The notes beneath the pieces were generated by a model, which did not search any database, had not been told where the DNA came from, and worked only from the letters and a program-made list of their open reading frames with translations. Shown in pieces: positions 4,883 to 21,297 of a stretch of DNA of 64,000 bases; position 1 is the stretch's first letter; each line of letters opens with the position of its first letter. The DNA is taken from the NCBI GenBank assembly GCA_001464695.1, contig LNDQ01000104.1, forward strand, positions 4,748 to 68,747, written 5' to 3'. Both the position numbers and the translations under genes were made by a program. This DNA is from Betaproteobacteria bacterium Ga0077523 (GTDB lineage: Bacteria > Pseudomonadota > Gammaproteobacteria > Burkholderiales > Ga0077523).

Positions 4883-6133
4883 ATGAAGCTGCGCGCCTTC
4901 GTACTCGCCGTACCTGTGCTTCTGTTCGCTGCTGGCAGCTACGCGGACACCACCGATGTGAAGACGCAGTCGCGGGTGTTCGTGAAGAAGATGGGCAAGC
5001 ATTGCGTCGACGATCCCAACTGCTTCAACCGCTATCACCCGGCGATCAAGCCGATCGGGACCGCCAAGCCGGGACAGCTCGTCACGTTCGAGACCCGCGA
5101 TGCGCTCGATTCGGATCTGACGGTGAACTCGGTGCCGAAGGACCTCGGTGCCATCGACCTCAACCTCGTGCACCCGCTCACCGGTCCGGTGACCATCGAA
5201 GGCGCGAAGCGTGGCGATGTCCTCGCCGTCACGTTGATCGACATCGAGCCCGATGAATACGGTTACACCACCGTGGTGCCGGGTTTCGGCTTCCTGCGCG
5301 ACCGCTTCACCGAGCCCTTCATCGCCAACTGGAAGCTGAATCATCTGGAGGCGGTATCCGACCAGTTGCCCGGCGTGCGTATTCCCTTCAACGGCTTCAT
5401 GGGGACGGTAGGCGTGCTGCCCGGCGAGCCCGAGGTGAATGCGTGGGAGGCGCGCGAAACGCAGCTCGCGGCGGCCGGCGGCGCGGCGCTCGGTCCGCAG
5501 CCCGTGGGGGCGTTGCCGGCGGCCGTCTGCGGCCCGAACGGCAGCCACAAGGACAAGTGCCTGCGCACCATCCCGCCGCGCGAGAACGGCGGCAACATGG
5601 ACATCAAGCAGATGGTGGTCGGGACCACGTTGCTGTTGCCTTGCTTCGTCGACGGCTGCGGGCTCTTCATCGGTGACGTGCACTACGCGCAGGGCGACGG
5701 CGAAGTGGCCGGCACCGCGATCGAGATGGGCGCCACCGTGACGGTCCGCACCGAGATCCGCAAGGGCCTGGCCTCCACGATCAAGTCCGGCCCGCACTTC
5801 GAGGGCGGTTCGCAGATCAAGCAGCTGGAGCCGGACCGCTTCCACGCGACGGTTGCCTACCCGATCAAGAAGGCCGGCGAGATTCCGCCGCAGCACAAGT
5901 ACCTGAACGGCGACAAGATCGGCCCGCTCGTCAACCTCTCGGAAGACCTTACCGTGGCCGCGCGCGGCTCGCTGAACGAGATGATCGACTGGCTGGTTCG
6001 GACCTACGGCTGGACGCCGGTACAGGCCTACGTCTACACGAGCGTGGCGTGCGACCTGCGCATCGGCAACGTGGTGGACGTGCCGAACTACGCGGTGTCG
6101 ACCATCTGCCCGCTGGAGCACATCAAGAAATAG
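4883..6133 (+). CDS. acetamidase/formamidase (FmdA/AmdA) family protein with signal peptide
   Basis: HPLTGP, PPRENGGNMD and GDVHYAQGDGE metal-binding motifs; Sec-type signal ending AGSYA. Confidence 0.9.
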   Translation: MKLRAFVLAVPVLLFAAGSYADTTDVKTQSRVFVKKMGKHCVDDPNCFNRYHPAIKPIGTAKPGQLVTFETRDALDSDLTVNSVPKDLGAIDLNLVHPLTGPVTIEGAKRGDVLAVTLIDIEPDEYGYTTVVPGFGFLRDRFTEPFIANWKLNHLEAVSDQLPGVRIPFNGFMGTVGVLPGEPEVNAWEARETQLAAAGGAALGPQPVGALPAAVCGPNGSHKDKCLRTIPPRENGGNMDIKQMVVGTTLLLPCFVDGCGLFIGDVHYAQGDGEVAGTAIEMGATVTVRTEIRKGLASTIKSGPHFEGGSQIKQLEPDRFHATVAYPIKKAGEIPPQHKYLNGDKIGPLVNLSEDLTVAARGSLNEMIDWLVRTYGWTPVQAYVYTSVACDLRIGNVVDVPNYAVSTICPLEHIKK

Positions 6134-6178: not shown

Positions 6179-6733
6179 ATGGAACGCCGCCGCTTTCTCA
6201 CTGCCGCCGCCGCGATGGCGGCCGCGGGCCTGCTCTCCGGTCACGCGCCGTATCGCCAGTGGGTCGTCTATCGCCAGACTCATCTGGTCATCCTGACGAG
6301 CCGCGACGATCCGGGCGCCGACGATCTGGGCGAGCAATGTGCGGCCGTGATGCGCACGGTCCTGCCGGACAGCAAGGCGGCCGTCGGTCGTGGGCCCCGC
6401 GTGCAGCGGATCGCGAGCCTCATCGCGACACGGCAGGCCGAGGTCGGGATCGTGTCGCAGTCGAATGCCACGGCGATGTACCACGGCGCAGCACCGTTCG
6501 GCGACATCGGGGCGATCCCGTTGCGGGTGCTGGTGCAGAACGAGGTCTACCGCATGGTGTGCCGCGAGGATTTTCCGCAGCAGCATGGATACCTGATCGC
6601 GGAAGCGCTGGCCGGTGGCGACGCCGATCTGGGGCTCGTGGTTCCGCGGACGGATCAGACCGAGATTCCGGTGCACGCGGGTGCCCAGGCGTTCGCCACG
6701 GGCGTCCCGCTGGAGGCGGGTGAGAGCAAGTAG
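6179..6733 (+). CDS. Tat-exported hypothetical protein, possibly TAXI/periplasmic-binding fold
   Basis: MERRRFL twin-arginine signal; fold guess is weak. Confidence 0.65.
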   Translation: MERRRFLTAAAAMAAAGLLSGHAPYRQWVVYRQTHLVILTSRDDPGADDLGEQCAAVMRTVLPDSKAAVGRGPRVQRIASLIATRQAEVGIVSQSNATAMYHGAAPFGDIGAIPLRVLVQNEVYRMVCREDFPQQHGYLIAEALAGGDADLGLVVPRTDQTEIPVHAGAQAFATGVPLEAGESK

Positions 6734-7448
6734 TCTCGTCCGCGCTGTGCTCCTGGTCGGGAGCCTGGGCGCGGGGGCGTTCGTTCAGGCCCACGATCTG
6801 ATCACTGCCGAAGCCGCGGAGCGCTACATCGCGCAGGCGCAGCGCAACGTCGCGACGATTCGATCGCGCGACGAGACCGCCACACGGCGCGCCGAGGCGC
6901 ACCTGGCGCTGGCCCGCATGCAGGACGAGATTCGCGATCTGCTCAATCGCGATCTCGCCATGCACGGGCGCGTGCAGGGCCTGCCCTCCAATCTCGTGCT
7001 TGAGCGGCTGAAGGCTGCCGGTGCGCCGTTGCCGTGGTCCGAGCGACTGGGGCGCTTTGCGGCGCCGGTGGAACACTACGGCGCCGCCTACGAACTCGAT
7101 CCGCAGGGTGCGGGCGCGAATGCGGCGCTCTACGGCGTCGTGTACGGGCGGTTCTACGACAGTTTTCGCGACGATCCGCTGGTGTCGCTCGATCCTGAAC
7201 CGGCCTCGAGCCACGCCCTGATCGAGGCTGGCGAGCGCTTGGTGAATGCGTACCCGCGCGACGCCAACGTGGAAGAAGTGCGGTTCATCGTCGCCGTCGC
7301 CTGGGTGCGTGCAGCACGCAGCGGTTCGGACGCAAGGCACAGTGCGGCGCGGGCCCGCGATCTGCTCGAGCGATTTCGCAAGGACTATCCGGACAGCCTG
7401 CGATCGGCGGCAGTCCCGGTGATGCTGGAAGCGCTGCCGGCGCGGTGA
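6720..7448 (+). CDS. exported helical (TPR-like) hypothetical protein
   Basis: GTG start, signal ending VQA-H, TPR/YbgF-like C-terminus LLERFRKDYPDS. Confidence 0.6.
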   Translation: MRASSLVRAVLLVGSLGAGAFVQAHDLITAEAAERYIAQAQRNVATIRSRDETATRRAEAHLALARMQDEIRDLLNRDLAMHGRVQGLPSNLVLERLKAAGAPLPWSERLGRFAAPVEHYGAAYELDPQGAGANAALYGVVYGRFYDSFRDDPLVSLDPEPASSHALIEAGERLVNAYPRDANVEEVRFIVAVAWVRAARSGSDARHSAARARDLLERFRKDYPDSLRSAAVPVMLEALPAR

Positions 7449-7533: not shown

Positions 7534-8325
7534 TCAGTTTCCCTGGGAATCCATCGGCTCGATCCAGTTGTGCAATGCCAGGCCGCCGTCCACCACGACG
7601 GTGGTCCCGGTGACGTAGCTGGAGAAACGGTCGGCGACCAGCGCGACGGCCATACTGGCGATCTCTTCCGGCTTGCCCAATCTCCGCAGGCTGGTACAAC
7701 GCGCCAGGCGATCGGCGCCGGCGGCATTCGCGTCGAAGCCGCCGCCTGGAATGGCGCCGGGCGCGATCGCGTTGACCCGGATGCCGTGCGGACCGAATGC
7801 GCGCGCAAGCTCCTTCACCAACATGGTCTGGCCCGCCTTCGACGCGCTGTAGTGCGGCAGGTTGCGCGGTGTCTCGGCATGCAGCGAGGTCACGAAGACC
7901 ATCCGGCCCTTGATGCCGCGACGGTGCATCTCCAGCGCGGCTGCCCGGGCAAGCACGAACCCGGAGCGCAGGTTCACCGCGAGCATCTCGTCGAAGGTGC
8001 TGAGGTCGACTGCCGCGACGTGATCGCGCTCGTGCCTCCGCGGGCTCGCCGCGTGCACCAGTATCGATGGGCAACCTGCCGAATCGATGGTGGCGCGCAA
8101 CAGGCGCTCCGGCGACTCCGGCGTGGCCAGGTCGGCCGCGACGAAGCTCGCATCCGGATGGCGGGCGCGCAGCGCGGCGACGGCGGCTTCTCCGGCGGGT
8201 CCGGGCAAGTCGCTCGACACGACCCGGGCTCCCTCCTGGGCCAGGGCGGCGGCGATGCTGCGGCCGATGCCGGATGCAGCGCCGGTCACCAGCGCGACGT
8301 CTCCGGCAAGCAGTGCGGTGTTCAT
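7534..8325 (-). CDS. SDR family oxidoreductase
   Basis: VTGAASGIG, YSASK, VNAIAPG and VVDGG motifs. Confidence 0.85.
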   Translation of the reverse strand: MNTALLAGDVALVTGAASGIGRSIAAALAQEGARVVSSDLPGPAGEAAVAALRARHPDASFVAADLATPESPERLLRATIDSAGCPSILVHAASPRRHERDHVAAVDLSTFDEMLAVNLRSGFVLARAAALEMHRRGIKGRMVFVTSLHAETPRNLPHYSASKAGQTMLVKELARAFGPHGIRVNAIAPGAIPGGGFDANAAGADRLARCTSLRRLGKPEEIASMAVALVADRFSSYVTGTTVVVDGGLALHNWIEPMDSQGN

Positions 8326-8499: not shown

Positions 8500-9327
8500 A
8501 TGGCGACGGTGGAATCCAATGGCGTGAAGCTGTACGCGGAATCGACGGGCAGCGGGACGCCGATCGTGTTCGTGCACGAGTTCGCGGGCGATTACCGCAA
8601 CTGGGAAAGCCAGGTGCGCTTCTTCGCGCGCCGGTACCGCTGCATCACCTTCAATGCGCGCGGTTATCCGCCCTCCGAGGTGCCGGCGGATCCCGAGCAG
8701 TACAGTCAGGCGCACGCCGTCGACGACATCGCGAGCATCCTGCGGCATTTCGGCGTCGAGCGGGCACACGTGGTCGGTCTATCCATGGGAGGTTACGCGA
8801 CTCTCAATTTCGGCGTGCGCTACCCCGCCATGGCGCGATCGCTGGTCGTCGCCGGCGCTGGCCATGGGTCGGATCCGGACAAGCGGCAGCGCTTCCTGGC
8901 CGACTGCGAAGAGCTCGCCGGCCGGTTGGTCCGGCTCGGCATGCAGGAGGGCATCGCGCACTACGCGAACAGTCCGATCCGAGCCCGGTATCGGGAGAAG
9001 GATCCGCGCGGGTTCGACGAGTTCAATCGCCAGTTCGCGGAGCACTCGCCGCTCGGTTCGGCGCTCACGATGCGCGGCTATCAGATGCGGCGCGCATCGA
9101 TCTATGAACTGGAGCCGCAGTTGCGTGCGATGCTGGTGCCGACCCTGGTCGTGACAGGCGATGATGACGACCCGTGCCTCGAACCCGCACTGTTCATGAA
9201 GCGCACCATCCCCGATGCGAAGCTCTGGGTCGTGCCGCGCACCAGCCACCCGGTCAATCTCGAGGAACCGGAAGCCTTCAACCGGACCGTGCTCGATTTC
9301 ATCTCGGCCGTCGACCAGCGCCCCTGA
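8500..9327 (+). CDS. alpha/beta hydrolase
   Basis: GLSMG nucleophile elbow; GDDDD acid and SHPVNLEEP His regions. Confidence 0.85.
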   Translation: MATVESNGVKLYAESTGSGTPIVFVHEFAGDYRNWESQVRFFARRYRCITFNARGYPPSEVPADPEQYSQAHAVDDIASILRHFGVERAHVVGLSMGGYATLNFGVRYPAMARSLVVAGAGHGSDPDKRQRFLADCEELAGRLVRLGMQEGIAHYANSPIRARYREKDPRGFDEFNRQFAEHSPLGSALTMRGYQMRRASIYELEPQLRAMLVPTLVVTGDDDDPCLEPALFMKRTIPDAKLWVVPRTSHPVNLEEPEAFNRTVLDFISAVDQRP

Positions 9328-9360: not shown

Positions 9361-12186
9361 ATGTTCTCCGATCTTGCGCTCGGTGCCCGATGCGATGCGC
9401 TGCTCGATGCGGGCAGTGGCCGTCCCATCGCTTGCGGACCGGGGGCATTGCAGGTGGTCTCTGCCACGGTCGAAGGCCGGCCGGTCACGGTCGTCGGTTT
9501 CGATTACGCGGTCGAACGAGGATCGATCGGTGCGCACGAGGCCGACCAGCTCGTGCGGGTCCTGAGGCGTGCGATGCAGGAACCGGTGCCGCTGGTGTTT
9601 CTGATGGACACCAGCGGTGTCCGCGTGACCGAAGGCGCTGAGGGCATCGCGGCGTTGCGCCGACTTCTGCGAGCGGCGCTCGATGCCCGCTTCGCGGGCG
9701 TGCGGATGCTGGCACTGATCGCGCGCCACTGCTTCGGCGGCGCGAGCGTGCTGGCGGCATCGTGCGAAGGTCGTATCGTGAACGCCCGGTGCATGATCGG
9801 CATGTCGGGTCCGAGGATGATCGAGTGGAGCGCGATCGACGGTCCTGCTCCGGCAAACGATGCCGACGCTGCTCGACAGCTGCTTGGCGGCGAGGCGCGA
9901 GCCAAGGTCTCCCCCGGGTTCGTTCTGATCGACGATGACGAGCAGGCCTATCGGACCGCTTTGTCGGAGTGGCTGCGTCAGGGGGCCGGCCGACCGGCGA
10001 ACGACGATCTGCTCGCTGAGGACAGGGCGCGTCTGCGTGAGCGACTGGTGAACGTGCGTCGATGGCCGCCCGCGGGTGAGGGCGCCGCGGTCGTCCTCCA
10101 TGGGGCGAATGCGTTCGTGGCAAAGAGCATTCTGGGCGATCGACACGAAGCCCGGCAATCGGGCGCGGTCCTGGATGCGTGCGCGAAGGACGGCAGTCGC
10201 CGCGTGCTTTACGGCTTGCTGGGCGGTGCCAAGGCCGACGCGGTCGACGTGCTGCGCCTCGCGGAAGCGCTGGCGGACTTGCCTGCGGACACCCGACAGG
10301 TCTCGGTCCTGCTCGACTGCGAGAGCCATTCCACCCGTGCAGCCGACGAGCAGGTCATCCTGTCCGAGTATCTCGCCTACCTCGCCCTGCAGACGCGGCA
10401 CCTGCATCGCCGCGGTATCCGCGTGACGCTCATGGTCACGGGTGTCGCCGGCGGCGGGATTCTCGCTGCTCTTGCCTGCGCTGCGAGCGAGGTCGGCATC
10501 GTGGCCGACGGCCGCCTGCGCGTCCTGCCGCGAGCGGCGCTGGCTGCCATCAACAAGTCGGGGGCCGCGTACGACAGCACGCCTGAGCATGCGGTCGCGA
10601 CCGGCGCAGTGGACGCGATCTTCGACAGCGACACCGAGCGCGCGAATGCGTCGAACGGTAACCGCAACTTCTACGCCGTGGTTGCAGCCCGGTGGGCGGA
10701 GCGGCCCGATGCCGAGTGCATCGAAAGCGATCGCGGCGTCTCGTACACGTTCGCGGACATCGACTGCCTGTCGGCGCAGTATGCCCATGCGCTGCTCGCA
10801 CTGGGCTGCATGCGCGACGACAGGGTCGCAGTTCAGGTGGAGAAGTCAGCGCAGGCGCTGGCGCTGTTCCTGGCGTGCCTGCGCGCCGGGATCATCTATC
10901 TGCCACTCAACACGGCATACCAGCCTGCGGAACTGGTCCAGTTCCTCGCCGATGCGCAGCCGCGCGTCTTCGTGTGTCGGGAGGAGCAGATCGATGAGAT
11001 GCGCGAGCTCGCACGCGGGGCCGGTGTGCCGCATGTGGCGGGGTTGAATCCAGCGGGGCTGGGATCGTTCGCCGAAGCCGCCGCCCATCGTCCGGTGCAT
11101 TTCGTCACCGCCGCCCGGTCCGAGGAGGATACGGCGACGATCCTGTACACATCGGGTACCACCGGCCGCTCGAAGGGCGCGATGCTGAGTCACCGCGCGA
11201 TGATCTGGTGTGCCCGGACGCTCGCCCGTTGCTGGGCGTTCAGCGAGCGCGATACGCTGCTGCACGCACTGCCGCTGTTCCACGGGCACGGTCTGTTCGT
11301 GTCGTCCTGTGTCGCACTGGTGTCGGGCGCCCGGATGATCTTCCATCGGAAGTTCGATGCCGCCGCTGTGCGGGATGCCTTGCCTCGTGCCACCGTGTTC
11401 ATGGCGGTACCCACGTTCTACCATCGGCTGCTCGCCGACGCGGCCTTCGATCGCGATTCGATTCGTGGGGTGCGCTTGTTCACCTCGGGCTCGGCGCCGC
11501 TGTCGGCTCAGGTGCACGAGGCGTTCCATGCTCGCACCGGATTTCGGATCGTCGAGCGCTATGGGGCGACGGAGACCATGATTCTGACGTCGAACCCGCT
11601 GCAGGGCGAACGGCGTGCCGGTTCGGTCGGAATCCCGCTGCCGGGCGTCGAGCTGCGCATCGCCAACCAGGAGGACCGGCCCTTGAGCATGGGTGAGGTG
11701 GGCATGATCCAGGTGCGCGGGCCTGGCCTTTTTTCGGGATACTGGCGCATGCCCGAGAAAACTCAGGAGGACTTTACCGCCGACGGATTCTTCCGGACCG
11801 GCGATCTGGGCACGGTTTCCGCCGATGGCTACCTCGAGATCACCGGGCGTGCGAAGGACATGATCATCAGCGGTGGCTACAACGTGTACCCCATCGAGAT
11901 CGAAGGCGTGCTCGATTCACACCCTTCGGTCGCGGAATCGGCGGTCATCGGTGTGCCGCATCCCGATTTCGGCGAGGCGGTCGTTGCGGTCATCGTCCCG
12001 AGCGATGCGAACTGCAGGGCGGAGGAACTGGTGTCGTGGGTCAGGACACGTCTCGCGAACTACAAAGTGCCGAAACACGTGGTGGTCATCGATCAGCTCC
12101 CGCGCAATGCTCTGGGCAAGGTGCAGAAGAACGTGTTGCGCGAGTCGTACGCGAGTCTCGGTCGAGGCGCCGCGGGCGGGGGGTAG
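9361..12186 (+). CDS. fusion of malonate decarboxylase MdcD-like and MdcE-like carboxyltransferase domains with a MatB-like malonyl-CoA synthetase
   Basis: N-terminal LLDAGS, DTSGVRVTEG, CFGG and GMSGPRMIE (MdcD/AccD-like); LLDCESH..EQVILSEYLA and GVAGGG (MdcE-like); C-terminal YLPLNTAY, YTSGTTGRSKG, ERYGATET, FRTGD and PRNALGKVQK (MatB). Confidence 0.8.
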   Translation: MFSDLALGARCDALLDAGSGRPIACGPGALQVVSATVEGRPVTVVGFDYAVERGSIGAHEADQLVRVLRRAMQEPVPLVFLMDTSGVRVTEGAEGIAALRRLLRAALDARFAGVRMLALIARHCFGGASVLAASCEGRIVNARCMIGMSGPRMIEWSAIDGPAPANDADAARQLLGGEARAKVSPGFVLIDDDEQAYRTALSEWLRQGAGRPANDDLLAEDRARLRERLVNVRRWPPAGEGAAVVLHGANAFVAKSILGDRHEARQSGAVLDACAKDGSRRVLYGLLGGAKADAVDVLRLAEALADLPADTRQVSVLLDCESHSTRAADEQVILSEYLAYLALQTRHLHRRGIRVTLMVTGVAGGGILAALACAASEVGIVADGRLRVLPRAALAAINKSGAAYDSTPEHAVATGAVDAIFDSDTERANASNGNRNFYAVVAARWAERPDAECIESDRGVSYTFADIDCLSAQYAHALLALGCMRDDRVAVQVEKSAQALALFLACLRAGIIYLPLNTAYQPAELVQFLADAQPRVFVCREEQIDEMRELARGAGVPHVAGLNPAGLGSFAEAAAHRPVHFVTAARSEEDTATILYTSGTTGRSKGAMLSHRAMIWCARTLARCWAFSERDTLLHALPLFHGHGLFVSSCVALVSGARMIFHRKFDAAAVRDALPRATVFMAVPTFYHRLLADAAFDRDSIRGVRLFTSGSAPLSAQVHEAFHARTGFRIVERYGATETMILTSNPLQGERRAGSVGIPLPGVELRIANQEDRPLSMGEVGMIQVRGPGLFSGYWRMPEKTQEDFTADGFFRTGDLGTVSADGYLEITGRAKDMIISGGYNVYPIEIEGVLDSHPSVAESAVIGVPHPDFGEAVVAVIVPSDANCRAEELVSWVRTRLANYKVPKHVVVIDQLPRNALGKVQKNVLRESYASLGRGAAGGG

Positions 12187-12206: not shown

Positions 12207-13244
12207 TTACGCGACCGCCCCTCCGCAAGACGATCCTGCTCCGGCCGTGCATCCGTAGCAGTGGTTTGCCGTGACGATGCTTCGACCATCGAGCAGGGTG
12301 GCATCGAAGTCCCGAACATGTCGCGGCGCGCCTGCCGTCACCGGCAGGTCGAGCATCTGGTTGAAGTCGCAGTCGTACAGCGTGCCGTCCCAACCGACGG
12401 AGATGGTGTTGCGGCACATCACGGCCTGTGCCGCGGCCGGATTGAACGCGTTCGCGAGCCGCTCCATGTAGCCCTCGAGGTTGCCGCTGTCCACCAGGAA
12501 CTCGAGAAAGCGGCTGATCGGCATGTTGGTGATCGTATAGAGATTGTTGAACACGACGTCGTACGAACGCGCGAGCTCGCGCTTGAATTGCGCTTCGATG
12601 CTGTGCTGGGCCGGCGGCAGGAACGCCCCTACCGGGTTGTGCACGAGATTCAGAGTGAGGCCGCTGCCTTCGACCCCGTAGCCGAGCGCGTTCAGTTTGC
12701 GCAAGGCCGTGATGGACTTGTCGAAGATGCCCTCGCCGCGCTGTGCATCGGCCTGGGTCGGACGGAAGTAGGGCAGGGATGCCACGATCTCCACGCGCTG
12801 CTCGGCCAGGAATTCGGCGAGATTTTCCTGCGGTTTCACCAGCAGGATGGAGAGGTTGCAGCGATCCATGACGTGGCGCCCGAGTGCGCGCGCTTCCTGC
12901 ACCAGCCAGCGGAAGCTCGGATTGAGCTCGGGCGCGCCACCGGTGATGTCCAGGGTCGGGATGTCGGTTTGTGCCAGGGCGCGGATGCACAGCTCCGCCG
13001 TCTCGCGGCTCATCTGCTCGGTACGCTCCGGGCCGGCATCCACGTGGCAATGCCGGCAGGTCTGATTGCAGAACTTGCCGATGTTGATCTGGAAGATCTC
13101 GATGCGGGATGCAGAGAGCGGCGGGAGACCGGCGGCGGCGATGCGTTCGTCGAACGACGTCCACGGTCCGGGCCGTGCCAGCACTTCCAGTTGCGACCGG
13201 CTCGACGCAAGCGGTGCCCGCCGTGCGATCAGGGTTTGACCCAC
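12207..13244 (-). CDS. radical SAM/Cys-rich protein, ArsS (arsenosugar-associated) family
   Basis: CNQTCRHC, TGGAPE, YDCDFNQML and HCYGCTAGAGSSCGG motifs. Confidence 0.85.
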   Translation of the reverse strand: MGQTLIARRAPLASSRSQLEVLARPGPWTSFDERIAAAGLPPLSASRIEIFQINIGKFCNQTCRHCHVDAGPERTEQMSRETAELCIRALAQTDIPTLDITGGAPELNPSFRWLVQEARALGRHVMDRCNLSILLVKPQENLAEFLAEQRVEIVASLPYFRPTQADAQRGEGIFDKSITALRKLNALGYGVEGSGLTLNLVHNPVGAFLPPAQHSIEAQFKRELARSYDVVFNNLYTITNMPISRFLEFLVDSGNLEGYMERLANAFNPAAAQAVMCRNTISVGWDGTLYDCDFNQMLDLPVTAGAPRHVRDFDATLLDGRSIVTANHCYGCTAGAGSSCGGAVA

Positions 13245-13271
13245 GTCCTGTTCCTTTTCGGTGAGGGGCGA

Positions 13272-13604
13272 CTACATCGAGAGCTTTTCGGCCACGTTGC
13301 GCATCTGCACTCCGTGTACCAGCGAAGCGCCGCCGCGGATGGCGCACGCCACGTGTACCGCTTCGGTCATCTCCTCGATGTTGGAGCCCTGCTCCAGCGA
13401 TGCCTGGGTATAGGCATCGATGCAGTAGGGGCATTGCACCGCGTGCGACACGCCCAGCGCGATGAGCGCCTTCTCGCGAGCCGTCAGGGCACCTTCGGCG
13501 AACACGGCACCGTAGTAGGCCATGAACTTGTCCCACAGTTCGGTGTTGCTCTTGCCCATTTCGGCGAACTTGCCGAGGTCGTGCGGATGGTAGTAAGTAT
13601 CCAA
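13272..13604 (-). CDS. AhpD/CMD-family peroxidase-like partner of the ArsS-type radical SAM
   Basis: QCPYCIDAY and IRGGASLVHGVQM motifs; TTG start; adjacent to the radical SAM gene. Confidence 0.85.
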   Translation of the reverse strand: MDTYYHPHDLGKFAEMGKSNTELWDKFMAYYGAVFAEGALTAREKALIALGVSHAVQCPYCIDAYTQASLEQGSNIEEMTEAVHVACAIRGGASLVHGVQMRNVAEKLSM

Positions 13605-13753: not shown

Positions 13754-14582
13754 ATGATCCGGTCCCGGTTCGTCGATCTGGCCAACGGCCAGCGCCTGCA
13801 CGTCCTGGCGTCGGGCGCGGGGCCGCTCATGCTGTTCCTCCACGGTTTTCCGGAGTATTCGGGCATGTGGCGGCGGCAGCTCGAGCACTTCGGGCGGGAT
13901 CACCATTGCGTCGCCCCGGATCAGCGTGGACACAATCTTTCGTCCAAGCCGGCGGCGGTGCGCGACTACCGTGCGAAACCGCTGGTGCAGGACGTCGTGC
14001 AACTGGCCGATGCGCTCGGCCACGACAAGTTCACCCTGATCGCCCACGACTGGGGCGGAGCCATCGCGTGGAACGTGGCGGCCTGGCACCCCGAGCGGGT
14101 GGAGAAGCTGGTGATCGTGAACGCCCCCCATCCGATCGCGTTCCTGCGGGAGTTGCGGGTGAACGCCGCGCAGCAGAAGGCGAGCGCCTACATGACCCTG
14201 TTCCGGACCGAGCGGGCCGAGGCGGTGCTGACGGAGGACGGCTTCCGCCGCCTGAAGCGAATGACCATCGAGCAATGGGGCGCCAATGGCGGGGATGCGT
14301 CCGAGGCCGGCCATGCTGAACTGGTACCGTGCCTCGCCATTGCATCCGCCTGAACCGGACACACCGCTGCCCGACCTCGATCCGGCGACGTTCCGGGTGC
14401 GCGTGCCCACGCTGGTGATCTGGGGCGAGCGCGACCAGGCGCTGCTGCCCTCGATCCTAGACGGGCTGGACGAGCACGTGGACCAGCTCGAGATCGAGCG
14501 GATCGCCGATGCGTCGCACTGGGTCGTGCACGAGCGCGGCGATCGGGTGACCGCGTCGATCGAACGCTTTCTCGCGACGTGA
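13754..14582 (+). pseudogene. epoxide hydrolase-like alpha/beta hydrolase, frameshifted near 14310
   Basis: first frame has HGFPE and AHDWGG; second frame has MLNWYRA, IWGERD and SHWVVHE; the helix normally preceding MLNWYRA is missing. Confidence 0.75.
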
Positions 14583-20454: not shown

Positions 20455-21297
20455 TCAGTCGCCGGTGGTTCTCCAACCCCATGCATCTTCCAGCAAGCCT
20501 GCGAACAGCGTCGCCACGGTGAGATCGGCACTGGTGCCCGGGTTGATCCCCTGCGCCTTGAGGTCGCCGTCCCACGAGCACAATCGTGCCTGGAATGCCC
20601 TGCTACTGGACGCGTCGCGGACGACGCGCGCCGCTTCCTCACGCAGGGCTACCGCACGGCCCGGTCCCAGTTTGCGCAGTACATGCGAGTCCGGGTAGCG
20701 GCTGAGGAACGCCAAGAATACCTCAGTTGTGCTCTGGCGCCAGTCGAGTCCGCGCCTGCGCCCTGCTGCGAGAGCAGCGTGTCCGGTGCCGAGCACGTCT
20801 GCATAGCCACCGGCGTATTGCGCTGCAATGAAATCGCGTGGTGCGGCTTCACGCATGGCTTCGAGCAGCGTCACCCGTGCCGGTGCGTGCACGTCGTGGC
20901 GATCGCTATGGCCCAGTCCGCCGGGGCGCGCCAGGCGGATGGCCGCGAACGCCTGCTCCGCGTCGTCGACCGTCAGGGCGGCGAGCGTTTCGGCGAGGGT
21001 GCCACCGGGCGACAGCGCGGCGTGCGCGAGCGGTGCGGCAAGCAGCACGATGCCGAGGTTGGTGTTGGTGCCGACCGCAGCCTGCGTGGCCTCGATGGCG
21101 CCGAGGATGCGTTGTCCGACCGTGGATCGCGGCGCGGCGAGCGCCGGCGCAGCCGCTCGCGCACTCGCGATGAACTGGGCCACCGACAGGCCGTGCCCCG
21201 CCCCGTGGAAGCCGACGCTGCCGGGTTTGAGTGCGCTCACGTCCAGTAGACACGCGTCGACGAAGGCCTGCGCGACGATGGCGGACGCTAGCCCCAT
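20455..21297 (-). CDS. CitG-like triphosphoribosyl-dephospho-CoA synthase family (Orf7)
   Basis: ALKPG, NTNLGIVLL, DSH..RK and INPGTSADL motifs. Confidence 0.85.
   Translation of the reverse strand: MGLASAIVAQAFVDACLLDVSALKPGSVGFHGAGHGLSVAQFIASARAAAPALAAPRSTVGQRILGAIEATQAAVGTNTNLGIVLLAAPLAHAALSPGGTLAETLAALTVDDAEQAFAAIRLARPGGLGHSDRHDVHAPARVTLLEAMREAAPRDFIAAQYAGGYADVLGTGHAALAAGRRRGLDWRQSTTEVFLAFLSRYPDSHVLRKLGPGRAVALREEAARVVRDASSSRAFQARLCSWDGDLKAQGINPGTSADLTVATLFAGLLEDAWGWRTTGD

Follow-up and report, generated by a model that had tools for sequence, protein, structure and literature searches.

Bacteria are known to break down malonate by two textbook routes: the MatB-MatA pathway, and the Mdc/Mad complexes, which are built around an acyl-carrier protein (ACP). 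In Rhizobium, the first of these is encoded by an operon for MatB, a malonyl-CoA synthetase, and MatA, a malonyl-CoA decarboxylase (MCD, PF05292). Here we describe a gene that resembles parts of both systems. It lies in a 64,000-nucleotide stretch of contig LNDQ01000104.1 from Betaproteobacteria bacterium Ga0077523 (order Burkholderiales), hereafter the window, to which all coordinates refer unless another locus is named. On the forward strand, positions 9361..12186 encode a single 941-residue protein consisting of an MdcD-like domain, an MdcE-like domain, a linker, and a MatB-type malonyl-CoA synthase. This fused gene is one variant of a module-then-matB gene pair that is common in the order, and the pair probably constitutes a third pathway for degrading malonate, in addition to MatB-MatA and the MdcACDE complex.

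The MdcD-MdcE pair of the Pseudomonas aeruginosa MdcACDE complex (PDB 5VIP/5VIT/5VJ1; PMC5534430) has, like the N-terminal module described here, two crotonase-fold domains of carboxyltransferase type that make up one active site. MdcD-MdcE is the best curated family match of the module, in which the oxyanion-hole positions of MdcD are conserved. Unlike MdcD-MdcE, the module has its two parts in one chain, here joined to MatB, and its scores stay far under the family cut-offs. Moreover, MdcACDE acts on malonyl-S-ACP, whereas the presumed substrate of the module is free malonyl-CoA, and the host genome gives no match to MdcA, to the MdcC ACP or to a second CitG protein. The Rhizobium route shares with our proposal the conversion of malonate to malonyl-CoA and then to acetyl-CoA, and its synthetase is of the same family as the MatB half. 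However, its MatA decarboxylase has an unrelated fold, with no PF05292 match in the fused protein or in the host genome, and in our loci the decarboxylase-like module comes first in gene order (55 of 55). The best structural match to the modeled module as a whole is AccADCB of Shewanella oneidensis (9kkm), to which both halves fit in one rigid alignment. This enzyme differs in being biotin-dependent, in having carrier and carboxylase parts, and in lacking an adenylating domain, and it is 11% identical to the module. Neither the folds nor the chemistry is new in itself; the novelty lies in their unannotated, widespread combination, which would amount to a third malonate route.

The fused gene and its junction

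The frame begins with ATG at 9361 and runs uninterrupted through 941 codons. Pfam places Carboxyl_trans at residues 36-155 (36.6 bits, cut-off 22.3), MdcE at residues 299-400 (19.4 bits, under its cut-off of 32.7), AMP-binding at residues 443-795 and AMP-binding_C at residues 846-920, with no match to the MatA-type MCD domain PF05292 in the protein. The first-pass annotation, which was made from the letters of the window and their open frames, had read the 941-residue frame as two carboxyltransferase domains followed by a full MatB. This three-part architecture is borne out, with Carboxyl_trans over its Pfam cut-off and MdcE under its own in this copy. The start at 9361 is supported because the alignments of relatives begin at residue 1 or 2 (MFS.L...). 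The database copy of the protein (P0003) is 912 amino acids long, its start having been called 29 residues shorter.

The linker occupies residues 422-435 (10624..10665, forward strand; columns 513-536 in the alignment of fused relatives), and its sequence at residues 422-433 (about 10624-10659) is DSDTERANASNG. It contains no methionine, the next one being residue 484, just as had been noted for the junction in the first pass. Model confidence is low here, with a predicted local distance difference test score (pLDDT) below 50 at residues 426-432 in the AlphaFold model. Both the length and the sequence of the linker vary among fused relatives, which otherwise align end to end.

Contigs of four public sequencing runs, from four studies, bridge positions 10600-10700 with substitutions only and 0 indels. 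The X2 contig (10344-11038) has 0 differences across the junction, that of X3 (10320-11150) has 3 substitutions and that of X8 (10432-10764) has 2, while the X6 contig covers 10495-10679. Run X2 and the probable source sample belong to one study.

An MdcD/MdcE-like module in a single chain

Domain 1 (residues 1-231, 9361..10053, forward strand) is a beta-type, MdcD-like carboxyltransferase domain, identified by Pfam Carboxyl_trans and by profile and structure matches to MdcD 5vip_B. Domain 2 (residues 241-421, 10081..10623, forward strand) is an alpha-type, MdcE-like domain, identified by family-level Pfam MdcE matches and by the match of the model to 9kkm_A. Searches with the module used residues 1-432 (P0002), and its relatives were represented by an alignment and profile of 37 sequences at 29-62% identity. 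The module passes the cut-off of PF01039 Carboxyl_trans (36.6-38.5 bits, cut-off 22.3), as a family matched by 37 of 37 relatives. Its best curated families are NF005530 (MdcD beta; 86.7 bits, cut-off 228) and TIGR03133 (79.5 bits, cut-off 278.15), and AccD comes next after the MdcD families. For MdcE, this copy reaches 19.4-20.5 bits with PF06833 (cut-off 32.7) and 34.1 bits with TIGR03134 (cut-off 237). Since the MdcD and MdcE cut-offs are not reached, the module is best classed as a relative of these families and not as a member. The second half can be called MdcE-like at the family level because 35 of the 37 family members match Pfam MdcE at E <= 0.001 (best E 3.3e-22). The resemblance to the malonate decarboxylase subunits claimed in the first pass therefore stands as regards the MdcD fold, the oxyanion hole and the family-level MdcE match, and falls short of the family cut-offs.

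Against PDB sequences, the 37-relative profile retrieves P. aeruginosa MdcD 5vip_B first (E 4.2e-30), with 12S transcarboxylase close behind (E 2.2e-28); with a single-sequence query, 12S transcarboxylase ranks first. The AlphaFold model of the module is confident (pLDDT 91.9, predicted template-modeling score (pTM) 0.93). By VIA-align, its first half superposes on MdcD 5vip_B over 213 residues (Z 21.9, root-mean-square deviation (rmsd) 3.0, 28% identity), and both halves superpose on the single-chain AccA-AccD 9kkm_A over 396 residues (Z 23.7, rmsd 3.9). The two-domain arrangement of PccB, 12S or AccD6 was also tried and rejected (Foldseek TM about 0.4 and rmsd about 18; VIA-align rmsd about 17). 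Because the model superposes on 9kkm_A and not on PccB/12S/AccD6, the prediction is that the halves are opposed as in an active beta/alpha (MdcD/MdcE) pair, unlike the domains within one PccB chain.

V121 and G162 are named as oxyanion-hole residues of MdcD in PMC5534430. They align to V87 and G127 of the module, within the motifs G86-V87 and F125-G126-G127 of domain 1, and G86, G126 and G127 are invariant in the 37 module sequences. In domain 2 the conserved residues are D319, H323, D329-E330, L334-S335, G361 and G365, and the polar set of this second half is invariant or nearly so across the same sequences.

The MatB half

The MatB-type malonyl-CoA synthase extends over residues 436-933 (10666..12159, forward strand). 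It scores 712.3 bits with NCBIfam NF005702 (cut-off 558, residues 434-933) and matches Rhodopseudomonas palustris MatB 4fuq at E 3.7e-147, and on its sequence is a member of the malonyl-CoA synthase family. The motifs that we take to be the P-loop (YTSGTTGRSKGA), GYNVYP and the C-terminal lysine motif (GK.QK) are conserved or invariant in 21 fused proteins. When the genome is searched with NF005702, this half reaches 714.5 bits versus 771.8 for the other copy of the host.

Fused relatives and free-standing modules

A word-indexed protein search finds 20 other clusters of triple fusions, 875-961 amino acids long and 41-91% identical to the query, which they cover to at least 96%. Drawn from several sources, they bear no more specific name than “AMP-binding protein” or “malonyl-CoA/methylmalonyl-CoA synthetase”. 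Herbaspirillum is represented among the isolates with a fused protein, and Collimonas and Ramlibacter among the metagenome bins. One of the clusters, 91% identical, is from another assembly, and a clade with Collimonas and Herbaspirillum entries has retained a methionine (MNANIF...) at the beginning of MatB. Full-length fused homologs thus exist, and the homologs are not always split. When the module by itself is searched exhaustively against 1.84 billion representatives, 64 proteins match at E <= 1e-30. Of these, P0004 and P0020 are about 900 amino acids long and most of the others are free-standing modules of roughly 370-450 amino acids, together with a few shorter fragments; therefore the D-E fusion is the common form, and the D-E-MatB fusion the rare one. 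The hybrid inferred in the first pass is thus not a lone one: the fused protein is the rarer form of a widespread, unnamed two-gene module.

Fusion of neighboring genes, when it is repeated, is classical evidence that two proteins act on the same pathway. On a quick maximum-likelihood tree (IQ-TREE) built from 57 modules, 22 rows are fused; their distribution takes 7 state changes, and at least 4 fusion gains or losses are forced by well-supported branches. Within the sample, the D-like and E-like parts occur as separate genes, as a D-E fusion and within a D-E-MatB fusion, and these forms can inform the evolution of the Mdc decarboxylase pair. In public records, such proteins go under no other names than “AMP-binding protein”, “hypothetical protein” or “acetyl-CoA carboxylase beta subunit”. 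The full-text literature searched, which does not cover subscription journals, and passages of a 2026 review (PMC12799670) yielded no account of either the pair or the fusion.

Pairing across the order

The pairing was surveyed in 401 sampled genomes of the order to which the host belongs. A MatB locus was defined as a match over the NF005702 cut-off, and a pair as a module match within 2.5 kb of MatB on the same strand. There are 124 MatB loci, in 119 genomes. The module is paired with MatB at 55 of them (50 genomes), mostly as a separate gene, and always upstream. Two totals, 105 of 401 for the module search and 97 of 401 for the MatA search, each include one genome flagged as unpublished (G026 and G205); both genomes are without a MatB locus, and the pairing counts are independent of them. 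A MatA match is absent from 37 of the 50 genomes with a pair.

Twenty-three related loci were inspected at the sequence level. The genes are separate at 21 of these, the stop codon of the module coming a few bases before matB. Genome G264, from the genus of the host, is fused like the window and is the one such case. At the remaining locus (L039, genome G394) the D-like, E-like and MatB parts are in one frame, with a TAG inside the E-like match, and the case is left uncounted: the alternatives are a fusion that has been broken and an error in the assembly, the genome being 89% complete. The use of a long open frame as a proxy for fusion was rejected, as the copies in G051, G045 and G189 and the host's own copy on C111 proved to be split, by different frames or a stop. 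In G233, G202, G148 and others, even the D-like and E-like parts are separate matches upstream of matB.

Three small genomes of about 45% G+C (loci L028, L029 and L036) have the module in an operon for an ATP-binding cassette (ABC) transporter, beside a flavodoxin and a different acyl-CoA ligase, which is 27-31% identical to MatB; the true MatB of these genomes is elsewhere. Therefore the module may serve other ligases too.

The host genome and its second copy

Two MatB-type genes of the host genome, and no others, score over the cut-off, and both carry the module. The second, unfused copy, of which the first-pass annotation was unaware, is on another contig, where the module is a separate upstream gene (L023, 5254-9163, reverse strand). 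The modules of the two paralogs are 33-34% identical, and the second passes the MdcE cut-off of PF06833 (39.4 bits, cut-off 32.7). These two modules are the only MdcE-family matches in the host genome. MdcA (PF16957), MdcC (PF06857) and MatA (PF05292) have no match in this genome, and mdcG and mdcH were not searched for. The CitG family has one match, at 20500-21273 (reverse strand) in the C1 island. The lack of mdcA and mdcC noted earlier for the window therefore extends to an 87%-complete genome, and the C1-island gene, described as the only CitG/MdcB-family gene of the window, is the sole CitG match of the genome. Across the genus, no MatA match occurs in the 10 genomes, and two MatB loci with a module are present in the host and in 4 of the 9 other sampled genomes.

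Proposed function

What we observe is the architecture of the protein, its family relations, a conserved pairing with MatB and a fusion that has been repeated. The C-terminal MatB domain would convert malonate, ATP and CoA into malonyl-CoA. The N-terminal module, with its MdcD-like and MdcE-like crotonase-fold domains in one chain and packed like a carboxyltransferase subunit pair, would then use its conserved oxyanion hole to hold the thioester while CO2 is removed with no need for biotin or an acyl-carrier protein, leaving acetyl-CoA. The two activities, the identity of the substrate as malonate, and channeling, if there is any, are what we infer, and we consider it somewhat probable that one protein thus takes malonate through malonyl-CoA to acetyl-CoA and CO2 with neither ACP nor biotin. 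According to PMC5534430, MdcD-MdcE of P. aeruginosa and of Acinetobacter calcoaceticus decarboxylate malonyl-CoA in vitro, an activity whose physiological meaning is left open by its authors. This published activity, together with the conserved adjacency and the repeated fusion, supports the view that the carboxyltransferase module and MatB are functionally linked. The coupling of the two halves suggested in the first pass gains support from the same three lines.

A wider reading, on which we are evenly divided, would make the module-MatB pair an undescribed third catabolic route, free of ACP, biotin and MatA, and the modules a distinct clade of single-chain MdcD/MdcE-like acyl-CoA decarboxylases. 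The fusion would be a one-protein pathway that may pass malonyl-CoA directly between active sites and, where MatA is in the operon, the module would be specialized for substituted malonyl-CoA. If this is true, the third route would fill an annotation gap, as 37 of the 401 genomes have MatB and the module and no MatA, and the in vitro malonyl-CoA decarboxylase activity reported for MdcD-MdcE in PMC5534430 would find a natural setting. The fused enzyme would also be a compact single-gene tool for making acetyl-CoA from malonate, and would lend itself naturally to testing how substrate passes from an adenylating enzyme to a decarboxylase of carboxyltransferase fold.

Several points weigh against these proposals. 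The module misses the MdcD cut-offs, and this copy also misses those of MdcE. The MdcE-like half alone retrieves nothing from the PDB sequences at E <= 10 (phmmer), and Q100, Y102 and S142, which in P. aeruginosa MdcE are proposed to hold the malonyl group (PMC5534430), could not be mapped onto it. The activity of MdcD-MdcE on malonyl-CoA is weak, with a kcat 14-fold below that of human MCD according to the same source. As for the genomes, the counts come from related and thus non-independent genomes, and no statistics are claimed for them; the absences in the host are limited by its completeness of 87.15%. MatA is also present in 13 of the 50 genomes with a pair. In four genomes of one family (G048, G312, G191 and G348) MatA directly follows MatB, with the module in the same operon, so that both kinds of decarboxylase are encoded together. 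A merely redundant decarboxylase would be odd there, which argues against a simple replacement of MatA everywhere. Finally, 37 genomes have MatB with neither the module nor MatA; therefore MatB does not require a decarboxylase. A clean either/or between MatA and the module was accordingly rejected: MatA is found in 13 of 50 genomes with a pair versus 32 of 69 without, a mild trend among related genomes.

Three of the operons with both decarboxylases (L034 in G048, L035 in G312 and L038 in G191) run FAD-linked oxidase, module, MatB, MatA, with genes of a tripartite tricarboxylate transporter nearby. The oxidase is large (1049-1422 amino acids) and has Fe-S and CCG domains.

Alternative explanations

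The main rival keeps the chemistry and changes the substrate: the fused protein would act on methylmalonate, ethylmalonate or another 2-substituted dicarboxylate, with the window's paralog being specialized and the second one handling malonate. We hold this to be rather unlikely overall, and it deserves most attention for the paralog linked to the hydrolase and oxidoreductase genes described below. It is suggested by the two module-bearing MatB loci of the host and of 4 of the 9 other genomes of its genus, by the low identity (33-34%) between the two modules, by the different gene contexts of the paralogs (hydrolase and oxidoreductase, with or without a GntR regulator, versus an ABC transporter and an ArgE/DapE-type deacylase), and by the lower NF005702 score of the window's copy (714.5 versus 771.8 bits). 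A substrate split would also explain MatA and the module sharing an operon in four genomes, and some databases name the homologs malonyl-CoA/methylmalonyl-CoA synthetase. Yet the MatB half is over the malonyl-CoA synthase cut-off and close to R. palustris MatB, and no neighboring gene names a substituted malonate. The module might instead be a true carboxyltransferase, moving the carboxyl group to or from a biotin carrier encoded elsewhere, or have another acyl-CoA activity of the crotonase superfamily, such as hydrolysis. Fold alone cannot tell a decarboxylase from a transferase, and 12S transcarboxylase is nearly equal to MdcD in the profile search and first with a single sequence. This reading is nevertheless improbable, as MdcD and MdcE, the best matches of the module among curated families, are biotin-independent, and no biotin carrier or carboxylase is among the neighbors scanned, which are part of those in the window and 18 fetched loci, the biotin carboxyl carrier protein (BCCP), which to our knowledge every bacterium has for acetyl-CoA carboxylase, not having been searched for genome-wide.

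It is more improbable again that the module is catalytically silent and serves MatB as a scaffold, oligomerization or regulatory domain, with malonyl-CoA as the end product, for example for fatty-acid or polyketide synthesis. The 37 sampled genomes with MatB and no decarboxylase partner make such an end product normal, and the MdcE score of this copy is poor; however, the oxyanion-hole glycines and a set of polar residues of the second half vary little, if at all, among 37 sequences of 29-62% identity, and in most lineages the module persists as an independent gene. An assembly or sequencing artifact joining two adjacent genes can be dismissed almost entirely. A single error could mimic a fusion where 21 of 23 related loci are split by a stop a few bases before matB, but contigs from four runs, each of a different study, span the junction without an indel, and the same architecture recurs in the 91% identical protein from another assembly and in 19 more fused clusters.

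Gene neighborhood

An alpha/beta hydrolase gene (Pfam Abhydrolase_1; 8500..9327, forward strand) ends 34 bases upstream of the fused gene and is its probable operon partner. The hydrolase reaches no NCBIfam cut-off, its best matches being PcaD-, MenH- and RutD-like. An ortholog is upstream of the module at 4 of 4 same-genus loci of this paralog (L024-L027). Divergent from the hydrolase gene is one for a short-chain dehydrogenase/reductase (SDR) at 7534..8320 (reverse strand; start approximate), with Pfam adh_short_C2 matching from residue 158 of a 411-residue frame. In relatives the SDR gene stands between hydrolase and module and shares their strand. Among the four same-genus relatives, three show the consecutive series GntR(FCD) regulator, hydrolase, SDR, module, MatB. 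In G264, the remaining one, the hydrolase, the SDR and the fused gene are kept, and a major facilitator superfamily transporter follows.

The second host paralog comes after the atp operon (atpG-atpD-atpC) and is also preceded by a Liv-type ABC transporter and a deacylase of the ArgE/DapE family (TIGR01910, 226 bits, cut-off 218), in a region extending up to 16912. One may speculate that this locus serves to salvage an N-malonylated amine or amino acid. Its gene order recurs at L031, L032, L033 and L039, from three other families.

Directly after the fused gene, on the opposite strand, there is a radical S-adenosylmethionine protein of the ArsS arsenosugar type (12207-13604; TIGR04167, 453 bits) with a peroxidase-like partner (TIGR04169). 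The pair is kept in G264 and is unrelated to the fused gene. Farther downstream, an alpha/beta hydrolase frame (13754-14582, forward strand) is 199 amino acids long versus 291 in G264, and its end is overlapped by a second frame (14286-14582), so that a frameshift or a disrupted gene may be present. The region 6179-7448 (forward strand) holds two frames of 184 and 277 amino acids with coding-like third-position G+C and no Pfam or NCBIfam match, the second being 77% identical to a frame of G264. A gene of the formamidase/acetamidase family (4883-6133, forward strand) scores 182 bits with the FmdA equivalog (cut-off 500) and follows a gene for a HupE/UreJ-type membrane protein.

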